From positions 16,072-80,071 of the forward strand of contig VGKT01000002.1 in NCBI GenBank assembly GCA_016866955.1: 64,000 nucleotides of DNA. Direction: 5' to 3'. The translations under genes were made by a program, and so were the position numbers. This DNA is from Candidatus Pacearchaeota archaeon (GTDB lineage: Archaea > Nanobdellota > Nanobdellia > Pacearchaeales > GW2011-AR1). The notes below the pieces were generated by a model. It was not told where the DNA came from. It saw only the letters and a list, made by a program, of their open reading frames with translations, and searched no databases. This document shows, piece after piece, positions 13,892 through 44,434 of this stretch (position 1 is the first letter of the stretch; every line of letters begins with the position of its first letter).

Positions 13892-14046
13892 CGGCCCCAG
13901 GAAGAATCGAACTCCCGTTCTCAGGTTGCTTCGTATCGCACCACCGGGGTGATACGTCCTCCAAAAGGAGGATGATGCGTCAAGGAACCGTGGTTCCTTA
14001 CGCTACGCTCCGAAGCCTGATGTTCTATCCACTAAACTATGGGGCC
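13892..14046 (-). tRNA. tRNA-Arg (anticodon TCG) with a roughly 82-nt intron in the anticodon loop
   Basis: Hand-folded. Acceptor GGCCCCA/TGGGGCC, D-arm GTTT-AGTGGATA-GAAC, anticodon stem TCAGG/CCTGA, loop CTTCGG^intron^A, T-arm GGGAG-TTCGATT-CTTCC. Intron placed at the canonical 37/38 position. Confidence 0.55.
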
Positions 14047-23171: not shown

Positions 23172-26100
23172 TCAGCTTTGTAAAAATCGAGGAAGATAAA
23201 CACACTTGAACCAATTCAAGATACGTGAAATATCGGTCAAACGATCATCAAAACATCCTCGCGTTACAAACAGAGATCCTCGAGATTTATCACGACTTGT
23301 TTTAGAGTTCTTTCCAAGAATAACTCCTGCTTCTTCCAATTCTTCATCAGTACCTGGCACATCATCACGTACAGCAGAAGCAGTTCCTGAAGTTCTTCCA
23401 ATCAATGCTTGCACAGCAGCTTGATTCTTTTGTTTCTTCAAACTATCAAGGCTATCTGATTGAGAAGCATCAAGTCGTACATTTTCAGGATTAGATGGAA
23501 TAATTTTTTTACCAACAACACAAACAAGTTTTTTACTATCAAATTCCCCCTTACGCTTAGTACACATTTCCTCAGCAAGACTCTTACAATCAGCAGGACA
23601 CAACGCACGAGTTTCTCCTGCTTTAGTATCACAGATCTTATCTCCACATGCACTAGGAAGCGTAGTATTAGTAACAATTCCAATAGTACATCCCAAAGGA
23701 TTAGTACAAGTAATCGGAGGTACAAGGATATCTCCCGAACAAGGACAACTACCTGCACAAGCAACAGAAGTAGTCGCTTGACCTGCAAAACAAGGATTCA
23801 TATAAGAAAGTCCGTTTGCCCCACACACAGGAGACGCAGGTTGGCTTGCACAAGAAGGAACACAAGGGCCATAATAAGCAACAGCTACTTGCGCTTGTGC
23901 AGCTTTACAGGGGCTAGAATACGAAATACCATCCTCTCCACATACTAATGGACCAGCAGATATTGAACCAAATAGTGTAGGGCAAGTGGTTGAAATCGTA
24001 GAACACACTCCTTGATATGCAATCGTTATTCCTACTTGAGTAGCTAAACAAGCTTTATCATACGTTACTTCATTTGTACCACACACAGGAGCAGAAGGTT
24101 CGCTTGCGCACGCATATTCAGATCCCCCAGTACATTCATAGAATTCAAGAGACTGCATAACAACCAAAGTATTCTGAGGATTACCTGGCGTTTGTACTTC
24201 CAACTTCGTAAACGTAATACGATAATAGCGTGCAGAAACAGGGGAAGCAAGCATCCGTTTATTCACAGTGCGTGCATCACTCAAAGAAGCACTATCTCGT
24301 ATCGCCCAAGTAACACCGTCATCAGAAGACTCCAGAACAAACTGAGCAACTAATGGATTCCCTCCAAGAAGTTTAAATTGATACGCACCAATAGTACGAG
24401 GAGCAATAAATGAATACTGAATCCATTTTGGTGCACTAGCTGAAACAACCTGCGATTGCCAGAAGTTTGTCCCACCTGAGAAAGCACCCCAGGCCTGTCC
24501 TTGCGGACCACCAACCGTTGGATAATTCAATGCTTCACTATTACTTGATACGGTACCAACTGAAGAAGTATAACTTGACATCGTAGGAACAATAGTACCA
24601 CTCAACGATGTACACCCTGCCTGATTTGTATTCCCCGCACCATCGCTCACACACGTACAGCTACCTTCAAAGCAAGTATGAGTAAATCCAGGCAAACAAA
24701 GTATACCCACTGGAGGAGTCGTACATGCACCAGTAGAAACAATACTCACTCCAAGTGTTTCTGCTTCACATGAATTACCATACGTTACTCCATCATCCCC
24801 ACATACTGGTTTATACACTGCAGAACAAGTAACTGGTTCAGGAATTTTAACACAATGCAACTTTCCACAACCACTCAAACAGCCATTCGCGTCATAAGAA
24901 TTATCTTCAAGTGTACACTTTCCCCCAATTGGAATAAACACTTGAGGACAGGTAACTACATCGGCACAAAGGACAACATCATCTGATACTATATTTCCAC
25001 AAGTAATTGGACATCCCTTTTCATTGAGAACAGGGGCACCATAATGATATCCTTTAGGAGCACGAGGACAAGTCAAAGGCCCACATGCATCTCTGCCATT
25101 ACCTTCACAAGATAACGTACCGCAATCAATTTGACAACCAAAGTGATCAATACCTGGATTGGAATAAGAACAATCCGCAGGGGCAATACAAATCGGAGCA
25201 ACAGGACATACAAACGACTCTTCTCTGAATGCTGCACATTCTCCATCAGAACACGAAGTACAAGGTACAAAATCTCCTCCACGTTCAGGTGAAACACCAG
25301 GAGCAACACAATATAACTTGCTCACATAACACTTCTCTCCTTCACATGAATCAACCTTTTGCCCAAATTCACCAAAGGGATGTTCACTAATATAACATTC
25401 TTCATATAAGTTTTCAGAAACAAAAGATCCTTTACTATCGGTAAAACGTAACGCATGACGAGAATCTCTTCCAAAAGGATAATAGGCAAATTGTTTTGCA
25501 CGTTCACGTCCCTGACAAATACCAATAAAATTACGACTATATTTGCACTCCCAATAGAAAGCAACTCCCCCTCCTAAAGTATCAGCCCAACAAGCATTTC
25601 TATAATCTTTGCCATCTGCACCACACACAGGAGTATAATCGCTCGTACAATGATTTCCACCATCTCCTCCACCTTCTCCTCCACCTTTTCCTCCACCTTC
25701 TCCTCCACCTTTTCCTCCACCAACAATAGTAATGATAGGAGTACACAAAACAGAATCAATAGGTGCATGCGTTAAAGAATCAACACACACTCTTCCAACC
25801 CAAATAGGATCTCCACGAACAGTTTTTTCTCCACATAAATCAACATACCAATTATCAGGTTCGCTCGTCACATCATTACATCCGGCAGGACCGGGAAGAA
25901 TATACGAAAATGATGCTTGAGAGGTTCCCAAAGGATATACGCCTGAATAAAGTACCATCTCTCCGCTCATACCGTAAGCTCCAAAGAAGCTAGGCAACGG
26001 TCCAACTTTGCCATCTGTTCCTCCACCCGTCCCCTTATGAACAAGTCCTCCACGAGAATCAACCAAGTACCATGCTCCATCACCCACGTCTAATTGAAAA

Positions 26101-29100
26101 TAAACCGCAGCTAGATCTTTCTTAGTATCACAAGAGAGTCCAGTCTTTTGAATGCCCCATACTGCAGCAGGAGGTTGCACCTTACAGTCTTGTGGACAAC
26201 TACCCACCGATACCGTTTGAGTACATACCTCTGGCACTTTAGGGACATTGGGAGTAGTCGTAGGAGTAGTTGGTGGAGCAATCACCGTACAACGTTCAGC
26301 ATAAAGTGCCTTATATTCAACACTTTTTAAGAAGCCCTCTACAACTTGTGCACGAGTAGAAATTCCCTGTGTAAGTAAACCAGTCCAGTATGCTTTTCCT
26401 TGAGGATCTGAAGATCGTAAGAACAAACGTTCATACAATGTTTCAACAAACGCATCAGTACTCAACGTAACCAACCCATTAGCAAACGTTGTTGCATCAG
26501 GAGTACTACAACTAAAGGTACCTGAAGTAGAAGTTGCCTTGATAACTGGTAAGGCAAGACAGAAATGCACGTAGTGTGTTCCTCCCGAAAAGTAAGAAGG
26601 AGAATAGGGCACAACGCTACCCGAAGGATACATCGTACCCACCAAAGGAGCAACACTTGCTGCAGTTGTTTGACTCAATTTCCATTGTCCTCCAACATTT
26701 TCATACGTAAAGACAAGATTTCCACCCAAATGAGTCACAAATGAAGTCGTACTCATACCATCTCCACTCGAAGGTTGATAAACCGGACCACCATTCGAAC
26801 ACACACTCGAACCAATCGGAACAAAATCAACTACAATTTTACTTCCAGAACCAGTTCCACTCACTGGAATAGTAATAACCTGTGAAGAGCCATCTGCAAA
26901 ATAAAGTGTCAAAGTTCCTCCACTCCAAGGTTGCACTTTTGCAGCAAATACATCTAATTGATAAGTTCCAGCAGGATAGATTCCCAAAGACTGACCATAT
27001 TCATAATTCAATTGCTGACCATTTCCAATAAATACAAGAGGGTATGCATTGGTAGAAGAAGTCGACCAATATTCTCCTTGAAATGCATGTTGTAGATAGG
27101 CTGAAGTAATAGTCTTTGCAACAGGAAGAGACAATTGCACTATGAAATGATGATCAACTCCCCCGTACGCTGAAAAGGTTCCCCACGGACCAACGCGATC
27201 TTGATCAGCACCAAGATAAGTAGCAGTAATTTTTTGCTCTTGTTGTGTAGAAACAGGAACAACACCGCCAGGAAGACGAACACAGAACGTTGTTTGCTCA
27301 CCTGATTGAGCAGTATACCTTCCTCGTACAATTTGTCCTGAAGCATATTTAATCGAATTAAATGAGCCATGAGGAGGCAATGAAATAGACTGACCATCTA
27401 ACGTTAATGAACCATACGCTGGTCCTCCTTGCGAACCGATCTGCCAAACAGAAGGAGCAGTAAGAGAGAAACCAAGAGGAATCGTACCAATAGAAGATTT
27501 ACTCACAAATCCTGAAACAGGAACTTGCCAAGATGAACGAGAATATCCTTGGAAAGTACCTGCTTGATATCCTGCACTTGTTTCATCATACAAAACAGGG
27601 CAACCTGCAATACCCGTACCTTGTGTCGTAGGCGTTTGAGTAAGTGGAGTAACAAAAGAGGTAGAACTTCCTGGCAATTGCAAACACGTTAGTCCCGCAA
27701 TTCCATTGATACGTACCTGTGTTCCTGGAGGATACGAGCCGCGCCCATCAGGGAAGGATACAACTCCTCCTGGATAACCACCGACGAAATAGGTCCCATC
27801 TCCTTGAATATTGAAAAAGGAATAATAAGCTCCTGTTTGATAGACTACCGTCGTAGCATCATAACCTGCAGGGCGAGGATTCAAAGGTTGCGCACAACTT
27901 GTGGTTGTGGTTGTTGGAGTTGTAGTTGCAGGAGTAGCAGAAGAAGATGAAGAAGAACTTCCAATATACGTACCAGAACGACATTGAGCAGAAACAGTAA
28001 CAGGAGAACAGATATAAGCCGTTGCACTACCAGTAGAAGTTCGACAGGCACATCCTTGATAACCATCAGTTTTTTGCCAAGTAACTAATCGATTACTATC
28101 AGTTGATTCAAAAAATACCCCAATACCTGATAAGGTACATTGTCGTTCATTATTCGCAATCGCATACGTACCTCCACGCTGTGCACACATTGCTTGATTC
28201 TGAATATCAGTCATATCAAAAACATACCAAGGATAATAACAAGTATTTCCTCGCTTTTCACCCTGAAGACCTAGATACGAACAAGCAGAAGAAGCAGCCA
28301 AAGCTTCAAATCGAGGTTCATCGAAATAAGAATGACCAATTGTTTGGAGAGAGGTAGAAGAAACAGTGCACGCATTTCCTGTTGCTTCTCCTGTTTCACA
28401 AATGTTATTTCCACAAACTGCTTTATCTAATTGAGTAATACACGTATCTTTCTGAGGAATTACAAATGGACCAACAGAAGCTCGCTGAACACCATCACCA
28501 AATAATTTCAAAGTAACTTCTTCTCCAAATTTATAGATGAAATACGAATCAATTGTTTCCTGAGCTTTCATATTTCCTGTTGTTCCTTGTTGAATTAATT
28601 GATCCCATCCTCCACGAGAGTTGTAAAGCATGTATGAAGAAGCAAGAACCTTATTAACGCCAAAACTAAAGTCTTGACGTACCCCACTCCCATCAGGTAA
28701 ACATTCTTGTTTTCCTAATTGAATTGTCCATTCATCAATTTTCGGAGAAAGTAATGGAACAAATCCTGGGGCACTAGTTAATTGAGTAACAATTGGAGAA
28801 GAGAAACTGAGAGGAATAAGATCCGATGAAGGAGTAACGGTTTCACAAGGTTTCGCAACAATCTTCCCATTCGGACATTGATACGTTTCTCCACCGGTTG
28901 TACACGTATCAAAATTAATATCCAAGTTACAGGTTGGATCCCATCCAAAAGCTCCACACGTATCAGGGTCAGGACCAGTTGTTTCTCCATCAGTTCCTGA
29001 ACAAGGTCCAGACGTACAGGAAGGACTATCACACGGAACTTGTTGAGCAGGAGCTAAACAAGCATACGGCCCAGTACAAAGAGGAATACTATAACAGGTT

Positions 29101-30767
29101 TCAGCAGGGAGAGTAATAATAGCCTGGCTCCCAATAACTTCAGAAGAAATAATCGTAACCGCTACCCCTCCCACGTCTATCGATGGACCTGGTTGCCCGG
29201 AGGGACGATTAGGATCCCCAACAACCTCATCATGAGGAAAAAGTTTTTCAATAGGCTCAATCTTAACTCCCTCAGGAACAGGACCACAAGAAGGATCCCA
29301 TCTTTCAGTAGATTTAATTTTTGGAAGAGGATAATTCTCTGCTCCAGACCACACCCGGCTAGGAGCAGGTGTTTCACAGGCACCATATCGACTGGCAGTC
29401 AATTGTAGATTTGGGTTTTGGCAAGCAGCAACACGAAGAGTACACGAGTTTGAATAGGTTTTACCATCAGAGCCACAAACTGGAGTATAGTCCGCAAGGC
29501 ACCAGGTAGGGCATACAGTTGGGTTAGGAGTAGGAGTAGGAGTAGGAGCAGATTCAGTACTACATTCTTTTGTCACACGCACCCCTTCAGCAGAACAGAA
29601 CGAATCCCCTTCTTGTGCAAGTAATTCTTCACAACTTGGACGAGGACATAACATCTTACAATCTCCTGCTGCCACATCACCTGCAATCGTACATCCTTGC
29701 GCTTCCGCTTGATCAGAAAGTTCTGGACAGGTTCTCTTCGCAATCGTTTCATACACACTTTCAGGAGCAGGTTCCCAATTACTTGTATCCTTAACATAAT
29801 ACACGGGGAGAATTTTAAAATCACCGTCAACAGTACCATCTCCATTCAAATCACCTTCTATTCGTTGCCCATCAGGTACGCTTTCCCCTCCTTTTTCGCT
29901 CTCAACATCCGTACCAGTACAACCCTGACAAGTAACAAGCACTGGTTCACCTGGACCAGTTTTTTTAACCAAACCAATAACAGATAAACCTTCAGGAAGA
30001 GTATGCCCTTCTCCTTCTTCTTGAGGATACTTATATACATCTGCAAAATAATACTTATCATAACCATCTCCACCATCATCTCCACCATCACCATCTCCAC
30101 CATCATCTCCCCCTTCACTTCCGCCATCTCCCCCATCTCCTCCATCTCCCCCATCTCCTCCATCTCCTCCATCTCCCCCATCTCCTCCATCTCCCCCATC
30201 TCCTCCATCTCCCCCATCTCCTCCATCTCCTCCATCTCCTCCATCTCCACCATCATCTCCACCATCTCCTCCATCTCCACCATCATCATCATCATCACCA
30301 TCTCCCCCACTTCCGCCATCACCATCATCACTCAAATATTCAAACGTTACATGTCCCGTCGGAGAAAGTAAATCTGCAAAAGGAGCAAAAAAAGCAGCAA
30401 GGGGAGTTCGAGCAGGTTCAGCAGAAGGAACATCACTAAATCCAAACGCACGCAACACAAATAACGTACCCTGTCGAGTTGCTGCCACATCAGTTGTATA
30501 CAAAGGAACGGTAAAACAATCCCCAAGATTATCAGAGATACATTTCAAAGTACCTGAGCGAGGAACACTATCGGCAATATACAAAAGCGTTTCAGGTTTA
30601 ATCAATCCGTAAGTATATCCTGCAACCCAATATTGAATATCTTGTTCTCCAGCAAACGCACCATCTCGATTTCTATCAAAATTAAATGTTTTTAACGAAG
30701 CACCCGAAACAAAACTAACCAATAAACAAAGTCCAATTAAAAAGAAAACAAAACGCATTAAGCGCAT
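23172..30767 (-). CDS. giant secreted multidomain surface protein (2531 aa)
   Basis: Signal peptide, (GD)n/(GGDG)n low-complexity tract, PTPT linker, six Kazal-like modules (C..YxPVCG(S/A/D)DGxTYxNxC), F5/8 type C discoidin-like domain, DUF4214-like module, dockerin-like [11 protein letters not shown] motif, and GGGK/GGGE repeats. Confidence 0.85.
30060..30300. repeat. short-period coding repeat (ccatctcc[t/c])n encoding the Gly/Asp tract of the giant protein
   Basis: Seen directly in the sequence. Confidence 0.85.
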
Positions 30768-31273
30768 ATGGTTTCACTCCCCAAAGGAATACGAAGATAT
30801 TCTTTTTCAGTTGACATATTACGTATCACCACTGTTCCCGTAACTGCATCAACGGAGTGTGCACGCACGCGATACGAAAGAACACCATCACGAATAGGCA
30901 ATAATCCTTCTCCTCGCCAGAAAAACCAAGAATACGTTCGCTCTTTCACCGTCGTAGGTTGGGCAGAAGAATCAATAAACGTCCATCCAAGAGGAAGTTG
31001 TTCTTCGAGTAAAAAAGAAGAAGGAGGATTAAAGGCATTCACATTCACTTTAACTTGTACCGTTAGAACATTCCCTTCATCTTCAATAATCGCACGTTGT
31101 AAACAAATATGTTCGTCAGAAAAAAATCGAGCGGCACCCATTCCCCCTAAACTCAAAACCACTAAACAAATACCTATCAAAAGTCCGATACTAATCGCAC
31201 CGAGTCCTCGCTGAGAAGCAATCACCTGCATCATATACTGGGCATGTACGCATTTATAAATACTCCTCGACAA
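30758..31273 (-). CDS. hypothetical membrane-anchored protein, co-transcribed with the giant gene
   Basis: One TM helix. Overlaps the giant gene start by 10 nt. The real start may be the internal Met-Met at about 31232, preceded by ATTTATAAA. Confidence 0.45.
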
Positions 31274-31531: not shown

Positions 31532-31723
31532 ATGAACACGGGCCCTCAGAAGCTTTTTATATACCTCACAAATGCAAAATATGCTCTTGATAACTTTACC
31601 TCAAATAAAAGAAAAAAGAATAAGAAAAAAATCTTGAAACAAGGGGGTATTCCAATAAAAAAGATACTAAAGCAGCGCTTATGCGTGGATAATATGTTCA
31701 GAAAAATTCGAAGGAAAAGTTAA
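31532..31723 (+). CDS. hypothetical basic small protein
   Basis: 63-aa Lys-rich ORF. Weak support. Confidence 0.2.
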   Translation: MNTGPQKLFIYLTNAKYALDNFTSNKRKKNKKKILKQGGIPIKKILKQRLCVDNMFRKIRRKS

Positions 31724-31915: not shown

Positions 31916-34060
31916 CTAAACTCTTTTTGCACAAGTAACGCTTGTTAAATATCCGCAACGATCTCCGGTACAAGCAGGGGCTGCAACCCAAGAAGTGCCA
32001 TCCCATGATACCTTCACGTTTCCTTTACGTCTACATCCGTGCGTCCAGCATTGTGTTGTATGATTTGTAGAATAAGCATGTCCTGCTTCAACACAAAGTC
32101 GATCTAAAGATTGTTTAACTTGAGCAGCAGAACGAGCGGGAGAGATAGTAACAGTTTGAACAGTCGCACAAGTAACGCTTGTTAAATATCCGCAACGATC
32201 TCCGTCACAAGCAGGGGCTGCAACCCAAGAAGTGCCATCCCATGATACCTTCACGTTTCCTTTACGTCTACATCCGTGCGTCCAGCATTGTGTTGTATGA
32301 TTTGTAGAATAAGCATGTCCTGCTTCAACACAAAGTCGATCTAAAGATGGTTTAACTTGAGCAGCAGAACGAGCGGGAGAGATAGTAACAGTTTGAACAG
32401 CATTCACAGGTTTAGGAATCGCAACAGTAAATGTTTGCACAGGTTTAGGAATCGCAACAGTAAATGTTTGTCCAGAACTCAAGGTCACCACTAACGTTGC
32501 CCCTTCAAAGGGCGTATGAGCTGGTTGCATATACAGAACAAAGGGAGTCGTCCCAATACCAAAGGGAATCTCTTGCTTATACGCTTTGTTCACAAGGGTC
32601 CTTGATGAATCATTATACACTACAATCGGCCAAGCTCGGGTATTTGTAGTTGACCAATATTCTCCTGCCCAAGCATGAGTAAGATCTAATCCACGAATAA
32701 CACCACCAGTAGTAGAAGTAAGATTAAAACGAACAGCGAAATCAGTTCCTCCTGCTTGGACAAATTGATTCCATTGTCCTGCACGATCTTCACTCTGATC
32801 ACGATACGAAGCGGTACCTGAAGCTACCTGTGTGCATGCTCCATTACTACATCCTCCCGGACAAGTAAAGGGAGTAAGCGCCATTCCACCAGAAGCACAA
32901 TAGTTTTCTTGCACCATATTACCATTGCATGAATCAGTTTGAGGAGTTCCTCCCTGAGTAGTGCTTCCCTGCACAAAGATGTTTTTACCATCAGGAGCAT
33001 AGGAAGTAACATCGCTATCAGTGCATTCCGAAGTCCCACATTCAGGATTCCAAACTTTTTCTCCAGTAAAACCACTACATGCAATAAAATAGGCTCTTCC
33101 ATTTTGCAGTCTGAAATCTTCGTTTGTTCCAGAAGGTGAAGGTTGATAAGTTCGATTAGTGCTGAACCATTTTGCATTACCATTTTCAAGTGTAGGCTCT
33201 GTAATGGTATTACAACTTATTCCTTTCCGCTGTAACTCTCCCAATACGTTAGACGCCTTGTAATTAAATCTATTACTACATCTTGGCTCAGAAACAAGAT
33301 TATAACCGGATACAAGACTTATGTTTAAGGTTCCATCAATAAAATAACCAGTAAATGTAACTGGGCCTGTTGTTCTAACAAGAATTCCTTCATTTGTTTT
33401 TAAAGCAGGATTAAAATCATTGGACCATTTACCAAAGAGATAAGATGATGATTCATATTTGTTATTCCTTAATAAATAAATACTTGCCCCATTTGAACCA
33501 GTAACCCATTTGCTTAAATTGCCATCAGGCATTTGGACAGGAGCACCATAATACCCTGAAGAAAGATTAACAGAAATATAATTGCTTGGAGAGATACAAG
33601 CCCCATTTGAACAGCCATTAGGACACTCCAAAGGTTTAGAGTAAAGTAATCCGCCATCGCAATAAAATTCAACCAAGGTATTTTTTGTTTTATTCATTCC
33701 GATATTGTCATAGGGTCTTTCTTGTGCACAATAATCAGTTATTGTATATGGCGTACAGGCTGATTGATTTAAACATTTTGTTGCTCCGGTTGTAGTTCCA
33801 AGAACCTCATAGTTCTTTCCACCGTCGCTATCCGTACACGTAGCAGGAGGAACAGAAGGCACTGAAGTATTCACTGAAGTATTCACTGAAGTATTCACTG
33901 AAGTATTCACTGAAGTATTCACTGAAGTATCAGGACTAAATCGAACATCCGGGGATTTTGCAAACCAACTAAACGGATTCCACCACACCGCACTCACCAA
34001 CGAAACAGACAAAAGCGCCACTAACAAGAAAATAAAAACAACACGGGCCCCTTTATGCAT
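31916..34060 (-). CDS. secreted repeat-containing protein sharing a domain with the giant protein
   Basis: Signal peptide, (NTSV)6 repeat, and a Cys-rich region. The HAWAGEYWSTTNTRAWPIVVY segment is homologous to [20 protein letters not shown] in the giant protein. Two tandem 80-aa C-terminal repeats. Confidence 0.75.
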   Translation of the reverse strand: MHKGARVVFIFLLVALLSVSLVSAVWWNPFSWFAKSPDVRFSPDTSVNTSVNTSVNTSVNTSVNTSVPSVPPATCTDSDGGKNYEVLGTTTGATKCLNQSACTPYTITDYCAQERPYDNIGMNKTKNTLVEFYCDGGLLYSKPLECPNGCSNGACISPSNYISVNLSSGYYGAPVQMPDGNLSKWVTGSNGASIYLLRNNKYESSSYLFGKWSNDFNPALKTNEGILVRTTGPVTFTGYFIDGTLNISLVSGYNLVSEPRCSNRFNYKASNVLGELQRKGISCNTITEPTLENGNAKWFSTNRTYQPSPSGTNEDFRLQNGRAYFIACSGFTGEKVWNPECGTSECTDSDVTSYAPDGKNIFVQGSTTQGGTPQTDSCNGNMVQENYCASGGMALTPFTCPGGCSNGACTQVASGTASYRDQSEDRAGQWNQFVQAGGTDFAVRFNLTSTTGGVIRGLDLTHAWAGEYWSTTNTRAWPIVVYNDSSRTLVNKAYKQEIPFGIGTTPFVLYMQPAHTPFEGATLVVTLSSGQTFTVAIPKPVQTFTVAIPKPVNAVQTVTISPARSAAQVKPSLDRLCVEAGHAYSTNHTTQCWTHGCRRKGNVKVSWDGTSWVAAPACDGDRCGYLTSVTCATVQTVTISPARSAAQVKQSLDRLCVEAGHAYSTNHTTQCWTHGCRRKGNVKVSWDGTSWVAAPACTGDRCGYLTSVTCAKRV
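31927..32406. repeat. 2 x 240-bp near-identical tandem duplication inside the 714-aa gene
   Basis: Direct comparison. The sequence from gcacaagtaacgcttgttaaatatccgcaacg to agtttgaacag recurs with only a few mismatches. Confidence 0.85.
32418..32483. repeat. 2 x 33-bp direct repeat (TFTVAIPKPVQ twice)
   Basis: cacaggtttaggaatcgcaacagtaaatgtttg occurs twice in tandem. Confidence 0.8.
33858..33930. repeat. 12-nt tandem repeat (tcactgaagtat)x6 encoding (NTSV)n
   Basis: Seen directly in the sequence. Confidence 0.85.
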
Positions 34061-34062
34061 AC

Positions 34063-34082
34063 GAGAGAGAGAGAGAGAGAGA
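34063..34082. repeat. (GA)10 dinucleotide microsatellite between the TATA box and start codon of the 714-aa gene
   Basis: gagagagagagagagagaga sits between the ATG (34058-34060, minus strand) and CTATATAAA (34085-34093). Confidence 0.95.
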
Positions 34083-34084
34083 CG

Positions 34085-34093
34085 CTATATAAA
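34085..34093 (-). promoter_or_regulatory. TATA box of the 714-aa secreted-protein gene
   Basis: CTATATAAA lies 24 nt from the leaderless ATG. The spacer is entirely (GA)10. Confidence 0.55.
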
Positions 34094-39576: not shown

Positions 39577-41445
39577 TTAGGAATGTATATCTTTAGTGCT
39601 ATGAAAAACAATATATAACAATAGAACTAATCCGATTAAACTTAGTATCCGACCAATATAATTAAAGATATTATATGACTGATAAAATTCTATGCCTTTA
39701 GAATAATAATCTGGAGTAGCGGACATCATTCCAGGACCTATTATTTCAATAGGAATCTCTTTTTTAGATATAATATCTCTAGCTTTCCAAGAAGAATGAT
39801 AAAATTCTTTAAATATTACTTTTCCTTTTTCAGAACCATTTAGATAAACAATAACCAAATCTGGATTTTCTCTCTCAAACAAATAATTTAACTCTGCAAT
39901 GTTATTTGAATAAGAAATTATAGATTTTTTATTTAAATATTCATAAATATTCTTTGTAGAATCAAAAAAATCAATTGAGTTGACCTTCTTAAATAATAAA
40001 TTAGCACTTTCGAATTTCTTATCTGCTAAACTATCATTATTTACTTCTATATGACTTACACCAAACCAATCAAGATAATATAATGTTGAATTTAAATCCG
40101 AAGAACCCCATATCGAATCAATAAAATAAAAAGTATAATTTTGAAAAACTATTCCTTGATCATAATATCCTGAAATTTGACTCTGTCCAGGATAAAAGAA
40201 ATTCATCGCTTTTGCACTATAACCTACTGCTGCAAATCTATAATTATTAAAATTATTATTCATGGATAAATTATTATTTTCAAAATTATCCCAGAATACT
40301 CCAAAATTACTATCCCAATATTCATGACTATAATTATTGTTATTATCTCTTATAGCCTGATAACTCCAAATTAGCCCTAATATCAATATTAATATAACAA
40401 TTATTTTTAGATATTTTATATGATTAAATTTATTTAACATAATACCTAAAGAAATACAAATAATAACTGCTAAAAGAAAAATAAATCTTGCAGATTCTAT
40501 TCCAGCAGGATAAAACTTTCCAAGACCTCCCGATAATAAAAATAAAGAGATAATTCCAGCAGCAATTAAAAAGTTTAATATTTTATCTTTTCTTAAAAGT
40601 TTAAATCTATAAGCATAAACAAAAATAATACATAAGAATAAAGAAAATAATACCCCTATAGAACCGCCGTAATGACCCCATCTGAAAGTCTCATTGACTC
40701 CTAAAAAAGATATAAAACTAGGAATATAATTCATCTCTTTTGCTATATAACTTGAAGATTTTAATAAGAAAGGAATTAGCCAACATGAAGAAATAAGAAT
40801 ACCTGGAATTACAAACTTTATTATATATATAAGTTTATTATAAATATTTGAATTAACAAATAAGATTCTAAGAGATAAAATAAAAATAACACATAGGCCT
40901 GTGAATATATGACTTAATATAGAAATTGCAATAATAGGTGCAAGCAATAAAGAATATTTAGGTTTTGAAAAAGAATATTCTAATAATAACATAGAAATAG
41001 GAATAGTCCATAGAGAAAACATAAATGGATAATTTCCAACGGCTATAAAATAATAAGAATTTGCCAATACAGTTAAAAAAAAGAGTGAAGAAATAAGAGA
41101 ATTAAGTATATTTTTAATATAATAATTTAACAAAAAGAAAATACCCGATGTAGTTATAACTATACTTAAAAAACACAAAATAACACTACCAAAAAATAGA
41201 TCATTAAACATATTTAATAAATAATAAAATAAAGGAGGATAATATTGTAATAATGGGCCTCCAGAATACCATGCATAATTCCAACTAGCTCCTGGAAAAG
41301 ACTGCATATATTTAACTTTACTCAAGTGTCCTAATGAATCTAGTCCGATAGGATGATTTGTGTTCAAAACAGGATAAAATAATATAAAACTTACTAAGAT
41401 TATTATTAAAGCAGAATAAAAATTGTTTAATTTGAAAAAGTCCAT
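39577..41445 (-). CDS. polytopic membrane protein, putative GT-C-fold glycosyltransferase
   Basis: About 14 TM helices followed by a C-terminal soluble domain. AT-rich. Architecture resembles PMT/ArnT/AglB-type GT-C enzymes. No catalytic motif verified. Confidence 0.5.
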   Translation of the reverse strand: MDFFKLNNFYSALIIILVSFILFYPVLNTNHPIGLDSLGHLSKVKYMQSFPGASWNYAWYSGGPLLQYYPPLFYYLLNMFNDLFFGSVILCFLSIVITTSGIFFLLNYYIKNILNSLISSLFFLTVLANSYYFIAVGNYPFMFSLWTIPISMLLLEYSFSKPKYSLLLAPIIAISILSHIFTGLCVIFILSLRILFVNSNIYNKLIYIIKFVIPGILISSCWLIPFLLKSSSYIAKEMNYIPSFISFLGVNETFRWGHYGGSIGVLFSLFLCIIFVYAYRFKLLRKDKILNFLIAAGIISLFLLSGGLGKFYPAGIESARFIFLLAVIICISLGIMLNKFNHIKYLKIIVILILILGLIWSYQAIRDNNNNYSHEYWDSNFGVFWDNFENNNLSMNNNFNNYRFAAVGYSAKAMNFFYPGQSQISGYYDQGIVFQNYTFYFIDSIWGSSDLNSTLYYLDWFGVSHIEVNNDSLADKKFESANLLFKKVNSIDFFDSTKNIYEYLNKKSIISYSNNIAELNYLFERENPDLVIVYLNGSEKGKVIFKEFYHSSWKARDIISKKEIPIEIIGPGMMSATPDYYSKGIEFYQSYNIFNYIGRILSLIGLVLLLYIVFHSTKDIHS

Positions 41446-42494
41446 ATCTTATTACCTATAAAATTTAATATGAATGAAAACCCAATAGCTATAATCTGTG
41501 AAATTAGGTAATAAACTCCTAAAAGTTCGGTAAATGAATATAATACTGCTAAATTAATAATAAGAGCACAAATACTCACAATCAAAAATTTATAATATTT
41601 CGATAAAATCTTATATTTAATGCTTTCATTGAAAGTTAATACCTTATTTAAAATAAAATTACTTGAAGCCGCTAAAAAGAAAGAAAGAATAGCTGAAAAT
41701 ATATAATAAACTCCTAAAAGTTCAGTAAATGAATATAATACTGCTAAATTAATAAATGTGCCAATTAATCCGACTAAAGAAAATTTAATGAATTTACCGG
41801 ATAGATTTCTATGAGAAAAAATATAACTTGATAGGTTTCTAAGATAATAAATAATCTCTTTTATTCCTGCCTTACTCTTTCCATGAACGCGATTAGTGAA
41901 AATTATAGGTACTTCTTTAATTTTAGAATACTTGGCTTTAACAATAATCTCCAATAAAATCTTAAATCCCTTTGGATTAATTTTTATCCCATTTAAACAT
42001 TCTTTTTTTATCATAAAAAATCCAGACATTGGATCTTTAATGTTAGTAAATACTCTGGCCAAAAAAGTTGCTCCCTTAGAAAGAATTTTTCTATAATTTC
42101 CCCAACCAACTATATTTCCTCCTTTGACATACCTACTACCTATAACAATATCAACATCTTCATCTTTTATTAAAGAGTACATTTTATTTATGCTATCAGA
42201 AGGATGACTCAAATCCGCATCCATAACTGCAAGCACTTTGCTTTTTGATATTTTAAAACCTGCTAATACTGCTGAAGAAAGCCCCAATTTTCCAGTTCTA
42301 TGTATAACTCTAACTTTCTTATCTTTCTTTGATATATAATCTAATAAATCGCCAGTACCATCAGGAGAGTTATCATCAACTATAATGATTTCCCCATTTA
42401 TTCTATTTTTATTGAACTTTTTTTTTAAATTATTTATTAGAATAACAATATTCTCTTTCTCATTATATGTGGGAATTACGACTGATAAATCCAT
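41427..42494 (-). CDS. GT2 polyprenol-phosphate glycosyltransferase (DPM1-like) fused to a GtrA-like domain
   Basis: VVIPTYNE, DDNSPDGT and DADLSH motifs. The C-terminal 4-TM GtrA-like module has an internal repeat (NLAVLYSFTELLGVYY twice). Confidence 0.8.
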   Translation of the reverse strand: MDLSVVIPTYNEKENIVILINNLKKKFNKNRINGEIIIVDDNSPDGTGDLLDYISKKDKKVRVIHRTGKLGLSSAVLAGFKISKSKVLAVMDADLSHPSDSINKMYSLIKDEDVDIVIGSRYVKGGNIVGWGNYRKILSKGATFLARVFTNIKDPMSGFFMIKKECLNGIKINPKGFKILLEIIVKAKYSKIKEVPIIFTNRVHGKSKAGIKEIIYYLRNLSSYIFSHRNLSGKFIKFSLVGLIGTFINLAVLYSFTELLGVYYIFSAILSFFLAASSNFILNKVLTFNESIKYKILSKYYKFLIVSICALIINLAVLYSFTELLGVYYLISQIIAIGFSFILNFIGNKIWTFSN

Positions 42495-42527
42495 AAGAAA
42501 GATAATAAAAAAAATAGCTTTTAATAC

Positions 42528-43208
42528 TTAACTATTCAATTCATTATTTAATACAAGATATTGTTCAGAATTTTTTAGCTCATCAATTCCTTTCAAAACT
42601 GCTTTTTCATTGATTATTACTGAAGGATAATCTGTAATATTGTAAAATTCCATTAACAAATCTAATGACTTTATATCTAAATCTGCAGCAATAGGAATTA
42701 AAACAATATCATCAGGATATTTATTATCTAAGTCCACTAAATAATTACTTATTCCGCCTTGAATACCTTTAGTTACAATTGAAGGATTTCTATATTTATA
42801 CAAATAAACTATTGTATTAATTTTTAGCCCACAATTTTTCTTCTGATTGATATAATTTTCCCAAAGTAGAATTCTCAATAAATCATACCTTTTATGAAGA
42901 TTTATTAAATCAGGAGTTATCTTATTAGAATTATCATATTTTTCCAATTTAACTGCAGTCTTATAAACTTCTTCATTTAAATCATAAACAACCTTAGACT
43001 TCTCCTTGCAACTTAAATTATGGTTGTTTAATATATCAAAAGAATATCCAATATCAGATACCGATATTTCATAGTCATAATACAAGTCAGAAATAGCACT
43101 AACCCTATTATTTTCATAATATGTTCCAAACAAAAGACCTACTCCAAGTAAAAATACTGCAATCAATATTGCTTCTAAAAATACTAGCTTATTGAATAAA
43201 GTTACCAT
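42528..43208 (-). CDS. hypothetical membrane-anchored protein (glycosylation island)
   Basis: N-terminal TM. AT-rich. Overlaps the upstream GT2 gene. Confidence 0.4.
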   Translation of the reverse strand: MVTLFNKLVFLEAILIAVFLLGVGLLFGTYYENNRVSAISDLYYDYEISVSDIGYSFDILNNHNLSCKEKSKVVYDLNEEVYKTAVKLEKYDNSNKITPDLINLHKRYDLLRILLWENYINQKKNCGLKINTIVYLYKYRNPSIVTKGIQGGISNYLVDLDNKYPDDIVLIPIAADLDIKSLDLLMEFYNITDYPSVIINEKAVLKGIDELKNSEQYLVLNNELNS

Positions 43209-44434
43209 TTTTGATCCTTTACAACATACCTATAGATAGATACGACCCATACAATAGGATATATCATAAGATAAATAAGGGTATAAAAAACTATCCTTGA
43301 AAATACTTTAAAAGATAACTTTTTCATATAGCCTGTTTTTATCAGAATAAATCTATAATATATCATTGAAGAGATAAACAATAAAATCAAATAAAATATA
43401 ATTACTGAAGGATAATAATTGAAGAGATTGAAATGAAATAAACTAGCACCTAAAGATGAAGAATAAATTAAAGTTAAAATTGATGAAAATAATTGTTTCA
43501 TTAATAAGTATAATGAAAAAAAGAATCCAAATAAGCTTAAGAAAATACTAAGAGAGACAAAAGGCAAAACAAACACTCCAAACATTCCTTTTTTGAAGAA
43601 TATTGAACGATATTTGAAGAGTGCTTGCAAACCTCCTAATCCCCATCTAGTTCTCTGTCTAAACCATTGTTTGAAAGTAGTAGGAACGATAGTAGATACT
43701 CTAGCATCCAAGCACATACCGGTTTTATAATTATGACTCAATAAATTCCAAGTTATATCTATATCTTCAGTTATACTAGTTGGATCAAATCCACCCACTT
43801 TTTTAACATAAGTTTTTCTATAAACACTTAAAGGCCCATTAGTTACATAAACAGAATCTATAAAATCTAATAATTTTCTTGTCCAGCCCATTAGTAAGTA
43901 CTCAACTGCTTGAATCTTTGATAAATAATTATTATCAGAATTTCTAGCGCTTACAAAAGAAGTAACTGCAGACATTCTAAAATCTTCAAAATATCCCACT
44001 ATTTTTTTCAATGAATCTTTTGAAGGAAAACTATCTGAATCTACCACTGCAATTAATTCTCCATTTGCTAATTTTATTCCCTTGTTTAAAGAATCAGCTT
44101 TTCCTGAGTTTGGTTTATCTAATAATATAACCTTCTTATATTTAGAAACATATTTTTGAATAACTTTCTTTGTCCCATCTTTACTGCCATCATTAATTAC
44201 TATAATTTGTATTTTATCTTTAGGATAATCTAAATCCAATAAATGATCAATTGTATTTGCAATACTATCTTCTTCGTTATATGCAGGAACTAAAAAACTA
44301 ACAGAAGGATAATTTTTAACTGGAGGAGAATAAAATAATAATTTTCTATTCTTGATAAACAATATGACAAAAAAAGCAAACATTATGATTGCAATAAACA
44401 TTAAACCAAAATAAATCCTTATTATTAACTCCAT
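43202..44434 (-). CDS. processive GT2 glycosyltransferase (chitin/cellulose/hyaluronan-synthase-like)
   Basis: VPAYNEE, DSDS (DxD), TEDID and QRTRW (QxxRW) motifs with C-terminal TM helices. Confidence 0.75.
   Translation of the reverse strand: MELIIRIYFGLMFIAIIMFAFFVILFIKNRKLLFYSPPVKNYPSVSFLVPAYNEEDSIANTIDHLLDLDYPKDKIQIIVINDGSKDGTKKVIQKYVSKYKKVILLDKPNSGKADSLNKGIKLANGELIAVVDSDSFPSKDSLKKIVGYFEDFRMSAVTSFVSARNSDNNYLSKIQAVEYLLMGWTRKLLDFIDSVYVTNGPLSVYRKTYVKKVGGFDPTSITEDIDITWNLLSHNYKTGMCLDARVSTIVPTTFKQWFRQRTRWGLGGLQALFKYRSIFFKKGMFGVFVLPFVSLSIFLSLFGFFFSLYLLMKQLFSSILTLIYSSSLGASLFHFNLFNYYPSVIIFYLILLFISSMIYYRFILIKTGYMKKLSFKVFSRIVFYTLIYLMIYPIVWVVSIYRYVVKDQKW

Follow-up and report, generated by a model that had tools for sequence, protein, structure and literature searches.

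Tandem-domain surface adhesins are exemplified by the Rib and alpha C proteins of group B Streptococcus, by SasG/Aap and by Bap. In DPANN archaea, for their part, a life attached to other cells is presumed, in which case surface proteins would be the likely determinants of which partner is chosen. Here we describe a gene of a Candidatus Pacearchaeota archaeon from Lake Tanganyika (assembly GCA_016866955.1) whose predicted product invites comparison with both. The gene lies on the minus strand at 31916-34060 of a 64,000-nucleotide (nt) stretch of contig VGKT01000002.1 (positions 16,072 to 80,071), hereafter the window, and encodes a protein of 714 amino acids (aa). With Rib/alpha C-like adhesins it shares predicted secretion, in-frame and near-identical repeats of a whole domain, short perfect repeats and strain differences at the locus. 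The repeated domain occurs as two 237-nt copies that are in frame, 98% identical and devoid of synonymous divergence (dS = 0).

In all likelihood, this is an intact, expressed-looking gene for a mosaic, Sec-exported, probably N-glycosylated and disulfide-rich surface or extracellular protein that is lineage-specific and module-duplicated. We infer Sec export, N-glycosylation of an NTSV stalk, disulfide formation, the recombination mechanism and an adhesive role from sequence. The protein would consist of modules in series, each folding on its own, and would serve in binding or adhesion on the surface of an episymbiotic archaeon, with a host cell, a partner cell or a polymer as its target. The locus would change specificity as domains are gained, duplicated, replaced and lost. 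The features on which the following paragraphs draw are these:

31916-34060, minus strand: protein-coding gene for a predicted secreted, cysteine-rich (30 Cys), multi-domain protein of 714 aa (list of open reading frames, gene call of the Joint Genome Institute, hydropathy)
34063-34093, minus strand: putative promoter region directly before the ATG, with a TATA-like box TTTATATA at 34086-34093 followed by (CT)10 at 34063-34082 (Tandem Repeats Finder, sequence reading)
34040-34050, minus strand: upstream 11-nt direct repeat GGGCCCGTGTT in codons 4-7 of the gene (comparison with locus L012, repeat search)
33989-34060, minus strand: region coding for the predicted signal peptide, aa 1-24, MHKGARVVFIFLLVALLSVSLVSA (hydropathy, DNA match to locus L001, N-terminus of protein P0003)
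33860-33930, minus strand: 12-nt tandem repeat, 5.9 units, DTSV(NTSV)5, aa 44-67, just after the signal peptide (Tandem Repeats Finder, repeat search, sequon count)
33587-33844, minus strand: first Cys-rich domain of the CTDSDGG...CPNGCSNGAC type, aa 73-158 (matched by 119 of 120 listed homologues)
33035-33586, minus strand: middle domain, aa 159-342 (homologue P0001)
32825-33034, minus strand: second Cys-rich domain of the CTDSD type, aa 343-412 (sequence comparison)
32441-32824, minus strand: beta-sandwich domain common to the neighbouring giant protein, aa 413-540, nine strands (BLASTP, shuffle test, AlphaFold2, family profile)
32405-32470, minus strand: 33-bp perfect duplication, QTFTVAIPKPV twice, aa 531-552 (Tandem Repeats Finder, AlphaFold2 strand, ends of P0003 and P0123)
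32162-32398, minus strand: Cys6 module, copy 1, aa 555-633, with the derived residues P571 and D619 (copy comparison, P0124)
31925-32161, minus strand: Cys6 module, copy 2, aa 634-712, with the ancestral-like residues Q650 and T698 as in P0124 (copy comparison, P0124)
31535-31545, minus strand: downstream copy of GGGCCCGTGTT, 370 nt past the stop codon (comparison with L012, repeat search)
26865-27233, minus strand: the same beta-sandwich domain within the giant protein of 2531 aa, aa 1179-1301 (BLASTP, alignment, family profile)

The open reading frame (ORF) starts with an ATG, and the same gene was called by the Joint Genome Institute (JGI) on an identical contig (L009, described below). According to hydropathy, the N-terminus is the sole hydrophobic segment of the 714-aa protein, and the giant protein likewise has an N-terminal signal-like segment as its only hydrophobic stretch. 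The original prediction that both proteins are secreted is therefore supported as far as these segments can indicate export. N-x-S/T sequons number 15 in the 714-aa protein against 9.8 +/- 2.7 in shuffled versions; together with the hydrophobic N-terminus they are consistent with the predicted Sec-exported archaeal surface glycoprotein. Expression would be driven from the TATA-like box and (CT)10, a putative promoter. As a separate observation, the (CT)10 repeat is shorter and interrupted in the related locus L001, and length changes there could affect the leader or the gene's expression.

Three direct repeats were found within the gene by Tandem Repeats Finder (TRF) and a repeat search. All three lengths are multiples of three, so that the reading frame is kept: 12 nt repeated 5.9 times at 33860-33930 and 33 nt repeated twice at 32405-32470, both 100% identical, and 237 nt repeated twice at 31925-32398, 98% identical. 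TRF thus bears out the 33-bp direct repeat as originally described. The 12-nt array had been read as six units of (NTSV)n; the repeat is genuine, but its 5.9 units encode DTSV and five NTSV, that is, five sequons and not six. Similarly, a 240-bp duplication at 31927-32406 had been proposed to encode two 80-aa Cys4 modules. A duplication is present, but its period is 237 nt (79 aa), and each module contains six cysteines, at residues 577, 592, 597, 618, 623 and 631 in copy 1 and at 656, 671, 676, 697, 702 and 710 in copy 2. The two copies differ at six nucleotides, three interior and three at the 3' edge of the unit. The interior differences, CCA/CAA (P571/Q650) and GAC/ACC (D619/T698), correspond to two events, all non-synonymous and both in copy 1. 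Copies that are in frame with dS = 0 agree with the very recent duplication envisaged at the outset.

Are two copies what the cells really carry? DNA identical to the window was found in the IMG metagenomes 3300020193 and 3300020200, both listed as Lake Tanganyika metagenomes by Tran et al. 2021 (PMC8245535). In sample 3300020193, a 24-kb contig (L009) matches the window at 100% over 15,175 nt, including the whole gene. A 4-kb contig from sample 3300020200 (L018) represents a second haplotype and shows a single difference in the 2061 nt of the gene that it covers, C to A at 32349, which changes P571 to Q as in copy 2. All three assemblies, which stand for two haplotypes, agree in having the module and the 33-bp unit twice each and an unchanged 12-nt array. 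Short-read assembly could still be imagined to have produced the tandem duplication, or the count of exactly two copies, as an artefact: assemblers working from short reads can reduce a longer array to its fewest distinguishable copies, and Logan contigs (k = 31) break inside the repeat, L019 starting at 31958. Against this, two copies are present in the source contig (at least 64 kb), in the 24-kb L009 contig and in the 4-kb contig of another haplotype, the copies can be told apart by their interior differences and distinct flanks, and the reading frame is kept. Since L009 and L018 have the same structure, a one-off mis-assembly of the duplication, the artefact foreseen in the original prediction, is very unlikely, and we consider an assembly origin of the repeat or of its count highly improbable. 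The suggestion that the domain count varies between strains found no support in this small sample, in which three of three assemblies carry two copies and a longer array might have been collapsed.

The pattern of mismatches raises another explanation, namely that the repeat pair is the template and variable repeat of a diversity-generating retroelement (DGR). DGRs are frequent in DPANN and common in Pacearchaeota and Woesearchaeota, and at five of the six mismatched positions copy 2 has an A that copy 1 lacks. Nevertheless, one interior mismatch has the opposite polarity, three mismatches fall on the edge of the repeat, its interior differs at only 3 of 231 positions despite many adenines, and both copies are coding and in tandem. 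Moreover, no Y[AVILMC]DD motif occurs in any ORF of at least 200 aa in the 64-kb window, nor did any gene of 24425-44979 give a Pfam match to reverse transcriptase. A DGR at this site is thus scarcely credible, and a plain in-frame duplication of a coding module is the reading that we retain.

What the module itself is can be approached through a single relative. The word-indexed search of 5.8 billion proteins returned no match to the Cys6 module, and an exhaustive HMMER search of 1.84 billion cluster representatives recovered one true homologue, P0124 (E 8e-35). This protein of 916 aa, encoded at locus L008 of Logan ERR14822415, has a single copy of the module near its N-terminus, at residues 124-202. 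The similarity extends over exactly 79 aa with 77-80% aa and 77-81% nt identity and conservation of all six cysteines, and at the DNA level it starts and stops at the module borders. With dS of 0.79 and dN/dS of 0.17-0.20, the comparison with P0124, cysteines included, indicates that the module is folded and under purifying selection. Unlike the 714-aa protein, P0124 has a C-terminal transmembrane anchor and only one module, and the remainder of its sequence is unrelated. It belongs to a genome of 32% GC (guanine plus cytosine), where its gene adjoins pilus-type T2SSE/T2SSF genes; GC content overall and at third codon positions (GC3) of the module, compared with the host genes, gave no direction of transfer. 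Seven further phmmer matches (P0125-P0131) were rejected as module homologues, being at E 1e-5 or weaker and driven by the short motif WDGT(S/N)W. The last 30 aa of the module (KVSWDGTSWVAAPAC.GDRCGYLTSVTCA; 31925-32015 and 32162-32252) do align to the core of a 'WDGTSW...L.gVsC' repeat found in bacterial multi-repeat proteins (P0121 and P0126-P0131), with an hhalign probability of 95% and an E-value of 3.9e-8 for a single comparison. This repeat covers 30 of the 79 module residues, whereas the module has in addition an N-terminal helix and extra cysteines; the likeness may reflect either a remote common origin or convergence. Exact-pattern DNA scans found the module neither in metagenome_contigs, searched with two patterns, nor in genome_contigs. 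The first pattern lies in the stretch identical to L009 and was not matched, so metagenome_contigs evidently does not contain L009 and the negative from that collection is weak.

A match to a known family also has to be considered. Pfam Reprolysin_2 (PF13574) aligns to residues 636-696 with E 2e-5 and 25 bits, and the string VEAGHAYSTNH resembles HExxHxxGxxH, as if the module were a degenerate fragment of an M12B/reprolysin-like metallopeptidase and the protein a protease. This score is below the gathering cut-off of 27. In the module's version of the motif, Val stands in place of the first His and Ser in place of the Gly, and in P0124 the central His is Tyr (VEAGYAYSLSH). Since this pseudo-HExxH is not conserved in P0124, the match is spurious. 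A module of 79 aa is also far too short for a catalytic domain of 195 positions, and no PDB match was obtained. A protease origin therefore has next to no probability, and a small module, predicted to be disulfide-rich and extracellular, is the interpretation that we keep.

Relatives of the locus show where the modules came in. On the minus strand, the genes are ordered as follows: an ATP-dependent DNA ligase, the TATA-box-binding protein (TBP), the 714-aa gene, a small membrane protein of 158/171 aa, the 2531-aa giant, a membrane protein with an ArsR-like helix-turn-helix (HTH), and a SIMPL-family protein. Three related loci are informative, and protein-based scans of viral_contigs and genome_contigs found no relatives.

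First, locus L001 has the ligase and TBP at 87% nt identity (TBP at 100% aa), followed by the gene for P0003 (590 aa). Its DNA is 86% identical to the window from 34144 to 33974, where DNA similarity ends, so that the signal-peptide region is the sole part of the gene body kept at the DNA level. P0003 resembles the 714-aa protein in position, promoter-proximal region, signal peptide (its N-terminus is 70% aa identical), CTDSD domain and C-terminal beta-sandwich. It differs in an unrelated body and in a beta-sandwich that is only 28% identical, and it lacks the (NTSV)n array, the middle domain, the 33-bp duplication and the Cys6 modules, stopping right after the shared domain. Second, in L006 the counterpart P0123 also stops after the shared domain; next come the 158-aa gene and the beginning of the giant gene, both at 67% nt identity.

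Finally, L012 (Logan ERR14822415), with flanks 90-96% identical, is devoid of the 714-aa gene: GTATGCATAAAGGGGCCCGTGTT joins directly to window position 31545. The difference equals a deletion of 2505 nt between the two copies of the 11-mer GGGCCCGTGTT, at 34040-34050 and 31535-31545. At the junction (L012 2331-2353), what is left of the gene is its ATG with the first seven codons, running into intergenic DNA from downstream; this remnant favours deletion over insertion. Variation between related populations thus lies in the whole gene, its body being replaced in L001 and the gene deleted in L012.

Taken together, these comparisons suggest an order of events. P0003 and P0123 end after the shared domain, which marks the modules as a lineage-specific addition at the 3' end, and it is precisely at the stopping point of these counterparts that the 33-bp duplication is found. 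It copies the last beta-strand of the shared domain and the linker, the strand at 117-122 of the AlphaFold2 model corresponding to aa 532-537. A single Cys6 module would have joined the 3' end of the gene behind the beta-sandwich, with the 33-bp duplication marking that junction, and would then have been duplicated in tandem and in frame by slipped-strand or unequal recombination. This second step would have preceded the split of the two sampled lake haplotypes and, judging from dS = 0, would be very recent. P0124 has Q and T like copy 2, which identifies copy 2 as ancestral and copy 1 as derived (P571, D619). As L018 differs only by Q instead of P571, the duplication and the T-to-D change predate the haplotype split, and P571 arose later as a polymorphism. 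Both the middle domain and the Cys6 module have their nearest relatives in unrelated proteins of other DPANN-like genomes.

Near-identity of the 237-nt copies could also be maintained by ongoing gene conversion between older duplicates, that is, by concerted evolution. Such a process would leave dS = 0, and position 32349, where copy 1 reads CCA (P) in the window and CAA (Q) in L018, is as easily explained by a conversion tract as by a point mutation. Yet the counterparts in L001 and L006 have no modules, so the array cannot be old at this locus. Furthermore, the GAC/ACC difference is kept in both haplotypes, and as Q is ancestral according to P0124, a single change from A to C in the window lineage is enough to account for the data. 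Conversion is, in our view, distinctly unlikely; a recent duplication followed by few mutations is preferred.

The domain that precedes the modules links the gene to its giant neighbour. The giant ORF (23172-30767, minus strand, 2531 aa) has Kazal, DUF4214 and F5/8-type-C domains. BLASTP gives one significant alignment between the two proteins, residues 379-538 against 1143-1301, with 30% identity, 67 bits and E 5e-15. Aligned by Smith-Waterman, the two segments score 157, against 29.3 +/- 5.2 when the giant's segment is shuffled 1000 times (maximum 57; z = 24.6), and the best other stretch of the giant scores 39. An alignment between the proteins had been predicted, to be abandoned if no better than that of shuffled sequences, and it clearly withstands that comparison. 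The further claim that the proteins form a family holds for the shared domain but not for the proteins: as only about 125 aa of 714 and 2531 are common, this is one mobile domain rather than two paralogous proteins.

A family profile hidden Markov model (HMM) picks out the domain once in the 714-aa protein and once in the giant, and nowhere else in the window; its scores for them, 155 and 146 bits, are not independent evidence, both being in its own alignment. The domain is rare, only about eight proteins having been recovered in two word-indexed searches of 5.8 billion proteins. Its carriers are the 714-aa protein, the giant, P0003, P0006 (three copies) and P0119, the last three retrieved with the 714-aa query, and P0122 and P0123, which were added by profile search. 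The motifs D..G.W, H...GE.WST, YPLVV and GG(T)L are conserved over about 125 aa in the family. With nine aligned sequences, AlphaFold2 predicts a nine-strand beta-sandwich with a mean predicted local distance difference test (pLDDT) of 96.3 and a predicted template modelling (pTM) score of 0.90. From sequence comparison and model, the shared region is a real, mobile domain of predicted extracellular location. Weak Foldseek matches of its model are to lectins, PA14 and GLEYA-type adhesin domains, archaeal pilins and PCuAC copper chaperones.

Nearly all of the 120 listed database matches fall on the CTDSD-type domain. Among these matches, the CTDSDGG...CPNGCSNGAC domain occurs in at least 222 instances, with up to six per protein (in P0002). 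Its carriers are proteins of DPANN and Patescibacteria, some with S_layer_C, CARDB, PEGA, Kazal or discoidin domains, and no counterpart was found in Pfam or PDB. To judge from these matches, the CTDSDGG-type domain is extremely common in proteins of DPANN and Patescibacteria predicted to be at the surface. For the middle domain, the only full-length homologue among the 120 matches listed is P0001 (residues 676-862, 60% identity).

Several results weigh against our interpretation of the gene as coding for a folded, module-built surface protein. When the whole protein, the shared domain, the Cys6 module and the CTDSD domain were used as sequence queries, none of the five domain types was significantly matched in Pfam, NCBIfam or PDB sequences. 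The AlphaFold2 model of the Cys6 module is weak (pLDDT 65, one helix and three strands), and Foldseek found it no structural neighbour in PDB (E above 1). The shared-domain model likewise had no close structure in PDB or BFVD, its matches being of a generic beta-sandwich kind and the best of them reaching E 1.6e-3 with template modelling (TM) scores of 0.49 or less. Neither a membrane anchor nor a known archaeal sorting signal was found in the 714-aa protein, which could, in consequence, be released instead of displayed. As for its history, the order and direction of fusion and duplication suggested above depend on three relatives and one outgroup module, and the two to three substitution events between the copies are too few to infer selection.

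The slot between TBP and the giant might, on a broader view, be a hot spot at which this Pacearchaeota population exchanges surface-protein cassettes; we offer this as a tentative idea and a rather doubtful one. If it were true, the conserved promoter and signal-peptide region would serve as a recombination anchor, and gene bodies would be swapped (as in L001), extended by captured domains (as in the window) or excised between short direct repeats (as in L012). The outcome would be strain-level variation in host or partner recognition, akin to cassette-based antigenic variation. Contigs of six other assemblies (L010, L011 and L013-L016) end at 33901-33997, in or just upstream of the 12-nt repeat and the region coding for the signal peptide. 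On the hot-spot hypothesis, this cluster would be real population heterogeneity starting right after the signal peptide. It is partly technical, given the 12-nt array and assembly with k = 31, and may partly reflect diverging population alleles.

Other observations concern the neighbours. The 158/171-aa protein (30758-31273, minus strand) has one N-terminal transmembrane segment and no family match, and its gene runs 10 nt into the start of the giant gene. L006 and L012 conserve both genes together, and the small protein may serve the giant as a partner or anchor. Within the giant gene, a 9-nt (GGD)n repeat at 30063-30329 (minus strand) is the most divergent stretch between the two Lake Tanganyika haplotypes: about 68 mismatches and indels of -12 and +6 nt separate the window from L018 in about 230 nt, against at most 5 differences in the other 3.7 kb compared. 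It is a hypervariable, acidic, low-complexity region. The giant protein has 1 N-x-S/T sequon in its 2531 aa against 11.2 +/- 3.0 in shuffles, 0 of 500 of which were as low; the counts suggest that N-glycosylation is avoided in the giant and enriched in its 714-aa neighbour.

Elsewhere in the window, a block of low GC at 39577-44434 (0.24-0.27 against about 0.39 elsewhere) encodes GT2-family glycosyltransferases and a GtrA-like protein, and looks like a glycosylation or surface-polysaccharide island, possibly acquired horizontally. An Rfam tRNA match spanning 155 nt at 13892-14046 (minus strand), missed by ARAGORN, is probably an intron-containing archaeal tRNA.

Domains of DPANN surface proteins are almost all unannotated. 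The locus described here offers a compact example of capture of a domain at the 3' end, its immediate in-frame duplication, replacement of a gene body and clean deletion of a gene, the latter two seen in relatives with 87-96% identical flanking DNA. Two small uncurated domain families, the beta-sandwich and the Cys6 module, and a third, widespread one, CTDSDGG, are defined and are candidates for domain databases. The gene illustrates ordinary surface-protein evolution in unannotated domains, and its value is descriptive rather than conceptual.

Compared with Rib/alpha C-like adhesins, the modules of the 714-aa protein are Cys-rich, present in two copies, archaeal and without a cell-wall anchor. 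Neither Rib, G5 nor any other known repeat domain was matched in it by Pfam or NCBIfam, and the copy-number variation of those adhesins was not seen in the three assemblies and two haplotypes available. Large surface proteins of DPANN and the Candidate Phyla Radiation (CPR) provide the second comparison. The 714-aa protein is much smaller than these, has no Pfam domain, and contains a middle domain and a Cys6 module that each have a single known homologue, for the middle domain among the matches listed. Like them, and like its giant neighbour, it combines a predicted signal peptide and many cysteines with a mosaic of small, probably extracellular domains, and it shares the CTDSDGG-type domain with at least 119 such surface proteins.

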